Below, in pieces: positions 51,530 to 54,492 of a DNA stretch of 64,000 bases (position 1 is the first letter of the stretch; each line of letters begins with the position of its first letter). The translations under genes were made by a program, and so were the position numbers. The DNA lies in assembly GCA_041690055.1 (NCBI GenBank), contig JBDNFB010000015.1, positions 645 through 64,644 on the forward strand, written 5' to 3'. The notes beneath the pieces were generated by a model, which had not been told where the DNA came from, did not search any database, and worked only from the letters and a program-made list of their open reading frames with translations. The DNA comes from Myxococcota bacterium. Its GTDB lineage: Bacteria; Myxococcota_A; UBA9160; UBA4427.

Positions 51530-52729
51530 ATGGATCTCCCCCGCTCCTTTATCCCTGAAGCACGCCGCCTCCTCACCCTCGCGCGAACCGACCGCCGCGC
51601 CGCCGAGCGTGAACTCGCCGCCCTGTCTCCCGAGGAACAGGCAACTGTTGTCCTCGAATCATCGATGTCGGTCCGCCGTCAAACGATTGAACTTCTGTCG
51701 GATCCTGAGGCGGTCATTCCTCTGCTTCCGGAAGCGGAGTTCTGTTACACGTGCAGAGCGATTGGCCTTGAGGATGCGAGCTGGCTCTTGCCGCTTGCGA
51801 CTCCCGAACAAATCGTCGCGGGCTTTGACCTGGATACCTGGTCCGGGCTGACGATCGATCCGGTTCGACTCGACGTTTGGATGGCAGCGCTTGCGGAGAC
51901 GGAAGACGAGACGATCGTGGCGGCCGCTCAGGCGCTGGACCCGGAGATGCTCGTCATCTACCTGCGCAATCATGTGACGGTCGAGCTCAAGCCGAGCGAA
52001 CAAGACAACCCAGATTGGTCGCCGCCGGAAGCTTCACAAACGCTCGAAGGGCAGTTCTATTTCGTTGCGCGTGATTCCAACGATGACCTAGCGCCGATTC
52101 TTCACATGCTGCACGCGCTCTTCGCAGGGGACTACTGGCTTTATTTTCGGGCCATCCAAGCGGTGACCGAAGAGATTCAAACTGAGAACGAGGAATGGGC
52201 GCTGCGCTGGCGCACGGCGCGACTTGAGGACCTAGGTTTTCCGCCTTGGGATGTGGCGATGCGGATCTACGGATTTCTGCGACCCGATCGCCTCGCAGAT
52301 TTGCCACCGGAGGCAAACGCTCTGGATCTCGAGAGCTGGTCTGTGCCTGTCTGGATCACGGATATGCCCGGCTCGCATTCCGACGAGCGCGCGCTTTTTC
52401 GGGCTACGCGAGAGCTCGGCGCGGAAGAGCGGAGTGCCGTGTTTTACGCGCTGATCGCGCTGGCGAATCGCGTTGCCGTTGCGGACCGCATAGAGCTGGG
52501 CGACTCAGAATCGCTACCGAAAGCGATCGATAAATCGACCCGCTACGCGAGCGATGGTCTTGAACACGTCGCTGCCGAGAAGGGGATGAGTCTTGCGGAT
52601 ACGCTTCGTCGCGTGCCGATCGAACGGCTCTTTCGTGTCGGCGTCAATCTAGACCGCGAAAACGCGCTGCCTCGGCCGCTTGAAGATCCTCTCGAGGACG
52701 AAGAAGCGGACCCGTACGAAGACGCCTAA
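51530..52729 (+). CDS. conserved hypothetical acidic protein (possibly DUF6178-like)
   Basis: 399-aa ORF with good G/C third-position bias and no competing frame. The family name is from memory only. Confidence 0.6.
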   Translation: MDLPRSFIPEARRLLTLARTDRRAAERELAALSPEEQATVVLESSMSVRRQTIELLSDPEAVIPLLPEAEFCYTCRAIGLEDASWLLPLATPEQIVAGFDLDTWSGLTIDPVRLDVWMAALAETEDETIVAAAQALDPEMLVIYLRNHVTVELKPSEQDNPDWSPPEASQTLEGQFYFVARDSNDDLAPILHMLHALFAGDYWLYFRAIQAVTEEIQTENEEWALRWRTARLEDLGFPPWDVAMRIYGFLRPDRLADLPPEANALDLESWSVPVWITDMPGSHSDERALFRATRELGAEERSAVFYALIALANRVAVADRIELGDSESLPKAIDKSTRYASDGLEHVAAEKGMSLADTLRRVPIERLFRVGVNLDRENALPRPLEDPLEDEEADPYEDA

Positions 52730-52806
52730 CGCCCGGTGTTCCCACGAGCAGCCTGAGTCAATCGCAAGACAGTCTGAACCAGCCACAAGACAGTCTGAAC
52801 TAAGAA

Positions 52807-52834
52807 GGCCCGCCAGATCGAAATCTGGCGGGCC
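52807..52834. terminator. bidirectional intrinsic terminator between convergent genes
   Basis: Perfect 12-bp stem GGCCCGCCAGAT/ATCTGGCGGGCC with loop CGAA. The minus-strand trailer is TTCTTAGTT. Confidence 0.75.
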
Positions 52835-52870
52835 TCTCTGACTCGCATACTGGAGTCGGAAAACCTCTGA

Positions 52871-53089
52871 TTAGAGGTCAACCGCCTTCAGCGTCTTGCG
52901 CTTGTTGCCGATGGCACGTACTTCCGCGCCCTTGATCAGCTCGCGAACGACCAGATCGAGTGCACCGTAGAACTCACCTCCAACGTTGCACTTCTTGACG
53001 GCGTTCTTCACGCGTGCCTTCGAAATGATCAGCTCTGCCGGCTTGCCAGCACGCTTCTTTGCTGCCTTCTTCTTCTTCTTTGCTGCCAT
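52871..53089 (-). CDS. histone-fold (DUF1931 / Bdellovibrio Bd0055-like) small DNA-binding protein with a lysine-rich N-terminal tail
   Basis: 72 aa: MAAKKKKKAAKKRAGKP followed by ELIISKARVKNAVKK..GALDLVVRELIKGAEVRAIGNKRKTLKAVDL. GAGGGAG Shine-Dalgarno. Codon choice is AAG/GGT/CGT-biased. Confidence 0.65.
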   Translation of the reverse strand: MAAKKKKKAAKKRAGKPAELIISKARVKNAVKKCNVGGEFYGALDLVVRELIKGAEVRAIGNKRKTLKAVDL

Positions 53090-53209
53090 GGTATTGGCTC
53101 CCTCTCATCATGCCTTGCATCTCGCTCGTGATTCACAATCGAATCCCGGTCCGATCAGCATGGCCCCCCATAAAAATCGAATCAGCAGGAAACCCTGCTA
53201 AACGGCGCG

Positions 53210-53237
53210 ATCATAAACGTTTCGTGCACCTTGTCAA
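53210..53237 (-). promoter_or_regulatory. near-consensus sigma-70 promoter upstream of the histone-like gene
   Basis: The minus strand reads TTGACA-16 nt-TATGAT. It lies about 120-150 nt upstream of the ATG, in a locally AT-richer 530-bp intergenic region. Confidence 0.5.
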
Positions 53238-53622
53238 ACAAAAATGCGAACTCAATTCGGTCTCTCCATGCCGAAATCGAAGGCTTCAGGAGATCGAAAC
53301 GAAGCTCGACCTTCCAACGGACGCAGGATTCGACCCTCTCACGCGATGAAGAGTTCTGATTCGACACGCTCGAAACCGCGGAGTGTGCCGCCGCAGAATC
53401 GGGCGGAATGGGATGCTCTCAAAATCCCGAGTCAAGTCTCGTTTTATTCATGCATCCATTTGGATCTACAGGGAAATTTCGTATTCTTCGCCAAGCTGAA
53501 GGCCACGAAATCAGCCTTTAGAAGGCGCCTCCGTACCGTTCCTGCGACCCCCAATCCCGCGCGCGGCGAAAGCCCTTGAAGTCGAATCGCGCTTCCTCCT
53601 CTGGGCCTTAAGGGCAACGTCC

Positions 53623-54492
53623 ATGGACCTCGATCCACAAACACTTCGATTCGAATCCGTTGACGGTGTTCAGTTGCAAGTTTTTCGCTTTCGCGAGCGA
53701 ATTCTGCCCGAAGACGAGGCCAAAATACCGATCGTGTTGCTGCATGGCGGGGGCGCGAACGCGCATTGGTGGGATCATATCGCCCGGCCTCTCGCAGCCA
53801 AATTCCAACGCGAGGCGACAATCTACGCGCTCGACTTTCGGGGTCACGGAGACTCAGAATTTCCGAACCGGCATGAAGTCGGTGCGTTTGGGATCGATCT
53901 CGAGTCCCTCCTGAGCTGGCTTAGCCGAGAGGATGTGATCCTGATCGGCCATTCGATGGGCGCTGCGGTCGCACTTGACCATGCAAGCCGATTCCCCGCA
54001 ACCCGAGGGCTCGTCCTGGTCGACCTCGCTCGCGGACGCTCCAAGGGATCGCGAAGACGAGCGCGGCTGGCCCTCGCTTTCCGGCGCACGTACCCGTCGC
54101 GCGCGGACGCAATCGCTCGCTACCAGTTCCTGCCCGAGTCGAGCCGCGCCGCCGAATCCCTGCGCCAGGCCATAGCCGAGCACTCCGTAAAGGAAGAACC
54201 CGATGGTCGATTCGGCTACAAGTTCGACCCCGCCTGGTTTGGCCTCCCGAGCAGCGAGCCGCCTAACCTGTCCCAGGTCTTCTGCCCAACGCTTCTGATC
54301 CGTGGCGAGGAGTCCAATTTGATCAGCGACGCCTCTGCCGCCGAGTTCATTTCGCAGATCCAAAACGGCCGAACCCTCTCCCTGCCCGAAGCAGGCCACC
54401 ACGTCATGCTCGACCAGCCCGAAGCGTTTCTCGAAGAAGTGGGTGCCGTGCTGCCTCCCCTCCTTTCCCTGACCACCGAGAACTCCGCGTAA
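53623..54492 (+). CDS. alpha/beta hydrolase fold protein
   Basis: LLHGGGANAHWW, nucleophile elbow GHSMGA, and C-terminal EAGHHVMLDQPE. Confidence 0.85.
   Translation: MDLDPQTLRFESVDGVQLQVFRFRERILPEDEAKIPIVLLHGGGANAHWWDHIARPLAAKFQREATIYALDFRGHGDSEFPNRHEVGAFGIDLESLLSWLSREDVILIGHSMGAAVALDHASRFPATRGLVLVDLARGRSKGSRRRARLALAFRRTYPSRADAIARYQFLPESSRAAESLRQAIAEHSVKEEPDGRFGYKFDPAWFGLPSSEPPNLSQVFCPTLLIRGEESNLISDASAAEFISQIQNGRTLSLPEAGHHVMLDQPEAFLEEVGAVLPPLLSLTTENSA

Follow-up and report, generated by a model that had tools for sequence, protein, structure and literature searches.

Does a short gene in an uncultured member of the Myxococcota encode a histone, what kind of histone would it be, and does the lysine-rich tail at its N-terminus carry a function? 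These questions arise from a stretch of 64,000 nucleotides (GenBank assembly GCA_041690055.1, contig JBDNFB010000015.1, positions 645 to 64,644 of the forward strand), hereafter the window, in whose coordinates all positions are given. A first reading made from the DNA alone (the sequence-only reading) had described a 72-residue histone-fold protein with a eukaryote-like basic tail and strong expression signals. The open reading frame that it quoted is present in the frame listing exactly as given, encoding 72 residues from an ATG, and a protein identical to its product is already in public collections as P0002. We consider it likely that the gene encodes a bacterial alpha3-truncated face-to-face (FtF) histone of an uncultured, largely marine lineage affiliated with the Myxococcota. 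The gene and the two parts of its product are as follows.

52871..53089, minus strand: histone coding sequence, stop codon included (open reading frame listing; identical public protein P0002; 1789 homologues)
53039..53089, minus strand: N-terminal tail MAAKKKKKAAKKRAGKP, codons 1-17 (charge count, orthologue comparison)
52874..53038, minus strand: alpha3-truncated histone fold, codons 18-72 (profile matches, hhalign, invariant residues)

Family membership and histone fold

The window protein has 1789 homologues at E ≤ 1e-3, and an exhaustive search of 50%-identity representatives yielded 115 clusters. Many homologues are labelled 'histone H3/H4' (JGI) or 'DUF1931 domain-containing protein' (NCBI), and those labelled in this way come from Myxococcota or 'Deltaproteobacteria' metagenome-assembled genomes (MAGs). 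The GTDB species genomes in which close relatives occur number at least 132, and nearly all carry the label of Myxococcota or Deltaproteobacteria MAGs. Searched as a single sequence against PDB sequences, the window protein gave one match, HTkC (E = 0.006). A family profile built from 32 diverse members and searched against the same collection matched HTkC (9f2c; E 1.3e-15, 60.7 bits), HLp (9qt0; E 8.5e-13, 51.6 bits), HBb, also known as Bd0055 (8cmp; E 7.6e-10, 42.2 bits) and HmvA (8bdk; E 3e-5), with NF-YB and HMfA/B chains at marginal E-values of about 0.06-0.2. The matches to HTkC and HLp span the whole histone fold, and hhalign of the family against HBb gave a probability of 97%.

These results bear out the proposal of a histone-fold singlet related to Bd0055, with the qualification that the closest solved relatives are the tetrameric FtF histones HTkC and HLp rather than the dimeric Bd0055 type. 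The suggested kinship with DUF1931 had to be given up: Pfam returned no DUF1931 match for the window protein at E ≤ 10, and the protein does not reach the Pfam gathering threshold of DUF1931 (PF09123), CBFD_NFYB_HMF (PF00808) or core Histone (PF00125). Among the 32 relatives, weak matches appear to DUF1931 (15/32, best 7.4e-4), CBFD_NFYB_HMF (9/32) and Histone (4/32). The profile search that had been proposed as a check was thus negative for the DUF1931 and CBFD_NFYB_HMF profiles and positive once the 32-member profile was matched to solved histones. DUF1931 pseudodimers (e.g. Aquifex Aq_328) share the histone-fold superfamily with the window protein and cluster separately from FtF histones in the published cluster map (PMC12701072).

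The layout first read by eye, with a helix, a loop, a long second helix and an RKT clamp, agrees with alignments to solved structures, which place alpha1 at about residues 22-33, L1 at 34-38, alpha2 at 39-61, L2 at 62-67 and an alpha3 remnant at 68-72. The C-terminus, ...RKTLKAVDL, stops one residue beyond the clamp aspartate, and its alignment with HLp and HBb runs to the very end of all three proteins, so that the truncated alpha3 (3-4 residues in FtF histones) and the shortened alpha2 by which FtF histones are recognized are present in the window protein. The core of 55 residues has the length of tail-less FtF histones, and the whole protein falls within the 53-108 residues of bacterial FtF histones, many of which are around 70-72 residues long (Schwab et al. 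source data, PMC11390915). Four residues, R58, N62, T66 and D71, are invariant in the 32 diverse members and R64 is at least 90% conserved; among 83 close homologues all five are invariant. The RxTxxxxD motif, which combines the RD clamp with the L2 threonine, is present as R64-K65-T66...D71.

In the HMMER alignment, R58/N62/R64/T66/D71 correspond to R49/N53/R55/T57/D62 of HLp, where R49/N53/R55 form the tetramer network and R55-D62 is the RD clamp (PMC12701072). Bacterial dimer histones are without the FtF dimer-dimer residues, R48/N52 of the FtF hidden Markov model logo (Schwab et al. 2024, PMC11390915). In agreement with this, both the HMMER and hhalign alignments put S and D of HBb opposite R58 and N62, whereas the window protein's family keeps both residues throughout. 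The structures 9F2C and 9QT0 are those of FtF alpha3-truncated histones that form stable tetramers (PMC11390915, PMC12701072), and Myxococcota are among the phyla that bear FtF histones (Hu et al. 2025, PMC12701072). By every criterion that can be examined in a sequence, the window protein is an FtF histone and neither an HBb-type dimer nor a DUF1931 pseudodimer, because it combines the RxTxxxxD clamp and a one-residue alpha3 remnant with R58/N62/R64, which match the tetramer residues of HLp that are missing from HBb. It is an uncharacterised member of a described family.

Two of the solved relatives stand closest to the window protein. HLp, from Leptospira perolatii (PDB 9QT0-9QT2; Hu et al. 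2025, PMC12701072), is like the window protein an alpha3-truncated bacterial singlet of similar core length that ends one residue past the clamp aspartate. It differs in its short N-terminal extension and its net charge (about +2 for the sequence as aligned, compared with +15), in its phylum, Spirochaetota, and in its neighbouring genes, SMC and MAP in place of DUF6178 and an alpha/beta-hydrolase. HTkC, from the archaeon Thermococcus kodakarensis (PDB 9F2C; PMC11390915), is the best-scoring solved relative and shares the fold, the truncated alpha3 and an arginine at the R58 position, but it is archaeal, tail-less and 59 residues long, and has a glutamate at the N62 position.

Outside the window, the family also includes a natural fusion. 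P0001, from the Deltaproteobacteria MAGs OXU53/OXU92, joins two almost identical FtF units in 125 residues, each 67% identical to the window protein, behind a short non-basic N-terminus. The fusion is found on several contigs, and 62-residue single-unit versions fall in the same 90% cluster. From its sequence, P0001 appears to be a very recent pseudodimer.

The N-terminal tail

As the sequence-only reading had stated, the histone fold is preceded by a 17-residue lysine-rich tail. The tail, MAAKKKKKAAKKRAGKP, contains eight lysines, one arginine and no acidic residue, giving it a net charge of +9; by charge count, the whole protein carries +15 and has an isoelectric point of 10.5. No Pfam or NCBIfam domain or family match covers the tail, and the AlphaFold2 pLDDT (predicted local distance difference test) score over it is only about 52-55. 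No other start codon would yield a protein with an intact alpha1. On the coding strand, a 13-nt exact direct repeat, GGCAGCAAAGAAG, at 53054-53066 and 53075-53087 (minus strand), encodes AAKK twice around an AAG run.

To describe the tail across species, we retrieved 80 orthologous loci, of which 79 had a delimitable open reading frame, and took the tail to end just ahead of the hIISK motif. An N-terminal extension is present in all 79, always starting MA(A)[KR]..., and nearly all are K/R-rich. Tails are 8-20 residues long (median 17) with a median of seven and a maximum of ten K+R, compared with nine in the window protein, and typically have one acidic residue, at the junction with the fold. 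Their composition is basic throughout, with K/R exchanges and length variation, and K-runs differ in length even between near-identical proteins. Across the wider family, 30 of 60 complete singlet cluster representatives have a basic tail (11-46 residues, median 17), 16 are tail-less and 14 are ambiguous.

The survey of homologues that the sequence-only reading had called for therefore places the K-rich tail among many of its kind rather than marking it as unusual. Its statement that basic tails are uncommon applies to bacterial singlet histones overall (Hocher et al. 2023) but not to the FtF family, where tails are common and mostly positive (Schwab et al. 2024, PMC11390915). A 2026 preprint on Asgard histones contains nothing on bacterial tails. 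The description 'eukaryote-like' holds only for composition, with nine basic residues in 17; the Pfam and NCBIfam searches showed no homology to eukaryotic tails. Eukaryotes and Asgard archaea have tailed nucleosomal histones which, like the window protein, carry a disordered lysine-rich extension before the histone fold. These histones differ in belonging to another subfamily with a full-length alpha3, in assembling nucleosomes or hypernucleosomes, and in having longer tails that are documented modification targets. The resemblance of the window tail to these is compositional only.

Such variability could mean that the protein has a histone fold but that its tail serves no specific function, being a slippage-prone, drifting low-complexity extension that is tolerated as harmless charge. 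The range of lengths (8-20 residues among orthologues and up to 46 in distant relatives), the variable K-runs, the AAG-repetitive DNA with its 13-nt duplication and the 16 tail-less cluster representatives, which are presumably functional, would all be expected of such an extension. Less easily accommodated is that a basic tail is kept in essentially every species of the clade, that acidic residues are confined to one or two positions just before the fold, that frequent K/R exchange needs nucleotide changes that preserve charge, and that only one of the 79 tails (L063) is nearly uncharged. This pattern of conservation fits selection on composition, and we regard a functionless tail as unlikely. 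From the free interchange of K and R, the variable K-runs and the repetitive, partly duplicated DNA, the tail appears to be translated and selected for its composition, with an exact length that drifts, probably by slippage.

Some relatives outside the window carry far more striking tails. Basic extensions of about 29-46 residues with KKATRKKA-like repeats, reminiscent of linker-histone C-terminal domains, are found in P0156, P0159, P0169, P0188 and P0200, and those of 42-46 residues greatly exceed the window tail in this respect. P0156 lies in another gene neighbourhood (TsaD, phosphoglucomutase). The tail-less relative P0171 comes from a 578-bp contig that offers no gene context.

Predicted assembly and DNA binding

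By homology with HLp and HTkC, we infer how the window protein may assemble and bind DNA, mapping the HLp-DNA contacts onto it through the HMMER alignment. Contacts at the start of alpha1 (HLp A13, S14 and K15) correspond to K24, A25 and R26, those within alpha1 (K17 and K21) to K28 and K32, and those in loops L1 and L2 (T56 and T57) to K65 and T66. The DNA-contact surface of HLp on alpha1, L1 and L2 is conserved and more basic in the window protein, which has charges of +6 in the core and +9 in the tail of each chain; as aligned, HLp has about +2 and HBb about +3 per chain.

In the mechanism that we propose, two monomers would form a histone handshake dimer through alpha2, and two dimers a ring-like tetramer in which R58, N62 and R64 contact C-terminal residues of the opposite dimer. 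DNA would be bound around the tetramer perimeter without sequence specificity, through the start of alpha1, alpha1 itself and loops L1 and L2, with about 60 bp wrapped and compacted per tetramer in a nucleoid-organising role. For HLp, both the tetramer and the wrapping of roughly 60 bp have been demonstrated; for the window protein they are predicted. In each tetramer, the disordered tails would contribute about +36 and the cores +24, which with +6 and +9 per chain amounts to about +60. By analogy, the tail would most likely raise affinity and neutralise wrapped or neighbouring DNA. Other nucleoid proteins of bacteria bear Lys/Ala-rich AKK-type extensions that are known to increase both the affinity for DNA and its compaction. 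Examples are the C-terminus of mycobacterial HupB/MDP1, the N-terminus of Deinococcus HU and chlamydial Hc1; the cores of these proteins are HU or H1-like, not histone folds.

A different assembly would follow if the protein were a bacterial dimer of the HBb/Bd0055 type, which would stay dimeric and bend DNA or coat it as a filament, with no wrapping tetramer. HBb (Bdellovibrio bacteriovorus, PDB 8CMP, 8FVX), which is abundant in its host, is likewise an alpha3-truncated singlet, shares the RKTxxxxD motif and the alpha1 lysines, and matches the family significantly by both profile and hhalign; moreover, 'Myxococcota_A' is among the phyla with bacterial dimers (Schwab et al., PMC11390915). Two lines of evidence nevertheless make this assembly quite improbable. 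First, FtF proteins outscore HBb in the profile search (60.7 and 51.6 compared with 42.2 bits). Second, R58 and N62, invariant in the family and replaced by S and D in the strictly dimeric HBb, which also has no basic tail, are the residues by which the literature separates FtF histones from dimers (PMC11390915, PMC12701072).

A tetrameric FtF histone with a working tail is our preferred reading, and several points weigh against it. Tetramerisation is predicted from three conserved residues and the ranking of solved histones, and the role of the tail is argued purely by analogy. Here HLp itself offers a caution, in that the crystals show its N-termini as disordered (residues 1-7 in the free protein, 1-6 in the DNA complexes; PMC12701072). 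Length variation and slippage at the AAG repeat suggest that the exact sequence of the tail is weakly constrained. Pfam assigned no family to the single window protein even at E ≤ 10, and the only NCBIfam match, to 'citrate lyase subunit gamma', is spurious, lying far below threshold (14 bits, compared with a cut-off of 65). Structure prediction was of little help and speaks neither for nor against the fold: the AlphaFold2 monomer, built with 83 close homologues, reached a pLDDT of 63.5, too low to use, with helices at 24-34 and 40-70. The model of the natural fused doublet P0001, taken as a single-chain proxy for the dimer, was not usable either (pLDDT 54.2). Foldseek of the low-confidence monomer model against the PDB found only a nucleosome histone chain, at an insignificant E of 5.

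Several homologues in public data carry the JGI label 'citrate lyase gamma subunit', which looks like a propagated annotation error and is probably explained by the spurious sub-threshold NCBIfam match.

Expression signals, leader RNA and gene neighbourhood

The histone gene is flanked by four predicted expression elements.

53098..53104, minus strand: Shine-Dalgarno sequence GAGGGAG, 8 nt before the ATG (sequence; conserved motif)
53203..53237, minus strand: sigma-70-type promoter, with -35 TTGACA at 53232..53237, a 16-bp spacer, -10 TATGAT at 53210..53215 and discriminator CGCGCCG
53100..53204, minus strand: structured 5' leader (fold, cross-locus pattern, covariance model, covariation)
52806..52835, minus strand: intrinsic-terminator-like hairpin with a perfect 13-bp stem and a 4-nt loop, 36 nt past the stop codon and followed by UUCUUAGUU

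The expression signals to which the sequence-only reading had pointed are real and conserved across species. Its Shine-Dalgarno sequence has an SD-like counterpart at -20..-4 in 78 of 79 orthologous loci. The TTGACA-16-TATGAT promoter (53237..53210, minus strand) matches 11 of 12 consensus positions and is the sole such site in 1.1 kb, where shuffled sequences average 0.3; most orthologous loci have TTGAC[AT]-16-TAnnnT 70-300 nt upstream of the ATG. With the discriminator included, TTGACW-N16-TAnnnT-N0-3-GCGCC is found once in the 64-kb window; in 452 kb of related loci there are 31 occurrences, each of them upstream of the histone gene. With its consensus -35, 16-bp spacer and GC-rich discriminator, the histone promoter may, by analogy only, be said to resemble growth-rate-controlled or stringently controlled rRNA promoters of E. 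coli.

At the 3' end, the hairpin is perfect, as had been claimed, with a stem of 13 bp rather than 12. Its folding z-score is -4.5, and a consensus terminator scan of the locus did not list it. In 70 of 78 loci the stop codon is followed by a GC-rich hairpin, mostly of 12-18 bp with a GGCCCGC...GCGGGCC core, and in 38 of those 70 a T-rich run comes next. Codon use was compared with a background of 22 long open reading frames of the window, which contains no ribosomal-protein genes with which to calibrate highly expressed use. Of the codons singled out earlier, AAG is used exclusively (16/16; background 0.69), and the preference for CGT (2/5; 0.10) and GGT (2/6; 0.17) is partial. GCA (7/12; 0.12) and GTT (3/7; 0.16) are also enriched.

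The same basic-tailed open reading frame, with its SD-like motif, promoter and GC-rich 3' hairpin, recurs across species genomes, which is more than chance would produce. Together with the biased codons, these conserved signals suggest that the gene is real and highly expressed. It would probably be transcribed strongly from the sigma-70 promoter through a structured leader of ~113 nt, and translated from a strong ribosome-binding site, with its own terminator.

The ~113-nt leader begins with a hairpin (53182..53201), followed by a G6 run (53164..53169) and a closing stem around an apical hairpin. In most loci a hairpin is followed by a G-run that lies 30-41 nt past the -10 element, and the closing stem and apical hairpin are found in the window's sub-clade. 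A covariance model (R1) identified 16 instances (E ≤ 3e-10) in 16 species, each lying upstream of the histone gene; the remainder of the 516 kb gave no convincing match. In the leader alignment, 88.7% of cells are paired, compared with 32-54% in slid controls, and eight pairs in helices 2 and 3 show compensatory changes; none of 500 shuffles reached the observed covariation score, which comes from 16 related sequences in an alignment fitted to the model. Rfam contained no match to the leader at gathering or permissive thresholds. RNAalifold found no structure in a mixed set of leaders, in which two layouts were misaligned, and worked only within the window's sub-clade. The leader could be an autoregulatory or stabilising element.

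The histone gene is monocistronic. Its neighbours are an alpha/beta-hydrolase gene, divergent from it, and a DUF6178 gene, convergent with it, and the chromosomal surroundings are ordinary. The AT-richer upstream region of about 530 bp that had been described measures 533 bp (53090..53622), with GC falling to 0.50-0.55 compared with 0.61 for the window. Within the 64-kb window, we found neither a tRNA nor a member of any Rfam family, and no further histone gene or gene for HU or IHF; the HU and IHF queries covered the window only, and 64 kb cannot show absence from the genome.

The DUF6178 protein (51530..52729, plus strand) has 399 residues, an isoelectric point of 4.37, a net charge of -39 and an acidic C-terminus, ...EDPLEDEEADPYEDA. 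It has no homologue of known structure. In 64 of 78 loci its gene is the convergent neighbour of the histone gene, including loci where the protein is only 41-50% identical, and its orthologues are uniformly acidic with D/E-rich C-tails. The negative charge of the DUF6178 C-tail correlates with the K+R count of the histone tail (Spearman rho 0.43, p 5e-4, n=62, uncorrected for phylogeny). At the distant long-tailed relative P0156, DUF6178 is not adjacent; the neighbour there is an unannotated, unrelated protein of 405 residues.

One could assemble these parts into a bacterial histone-handling system without a described counterpart, in which the tail would be a tunable compaction module, the acidic DUF6178 protein would handle the +15 histone as chaperone or antagonist, and the covarying leader would give feedback control of histone synthesis. 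We regard this as a long shot. Still less probable is that the protein is not a general chromatin protein at all but a small basic protein with another role, for example that of a specific regulator, of a protein associated with RNA or ribosomes, or of a DUF6178 partner: the adjacency of the very acidic DUF6178 protein, a long structured leader reminiscent of autoregulated RNA-binding proteins and the occurrence of histone folds in non-chromatin complexes such as NF-Y and TAFs are outweighed by the conserved or more basic DNA-contact positions (K24, R26, K28, K32, K65, T66), by characterised relatives (HLp, the L. interrogans homologue and HBb) that are abundant nucleoid proteins, by strong promoter and Shine-Dalgarno signals and biased codons that point to a high copy number, and by the more distant tailed relative that has no DUF6178 neighbour.

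Three further observations concern the surroundings of the gene. A block of ~68 nt in the divergent intergenic region (53419..53488) is 100% identical to that of the closest relative, L005, between diverged flanks, and its core is kept in at least nine species. On the plus strand, it reads TTGGAT-N16-TATTCT preceded by a short inverted repeat, ATCCA-TT-TGGAT; because this element faces the alpha/beta-hydrolase gene at 53623, the block probably serves as the promoter of that gene. In the interval that separates the stop codon of DUF6178 from the shared terminator hairpin, CAAGACAGTCTGAAC occurs in two exact copies 21 nt apart (52765..52800), each with the palindrome AGAC-A-GTCT, and these repeats could be a protein-binding site. 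Finally, a second 72-residue gene call on the public contig (47865..48083, minus strand) is unrelated to the histone and probably spurious, since it overlaps longer open reading frames.

For the biology of bacterial histones, the current picture is unchanged, as the literature already describes bacterial FtF histones of Myxococcota that are tailed and positively charged. Something new is most likely to come from the leader RNA and from the acidic neighbour DUF6178, and interest would grow if the tail, the leader or the link to DUF6178 proved functional. Only HBb and HLp have been characterised both structurally and functionally among bacterial histones, and no bacterial histone tail has been studied. 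Since every species scored has an N-terminal extension on its FtF histone, of 8-20 residues and up to 46 in distant relatives, this large, uncultured and mostly marine clade of Myxococcota provides a natural series of tails in which the contribution of a tail to a wrapping tetramer could be examined.

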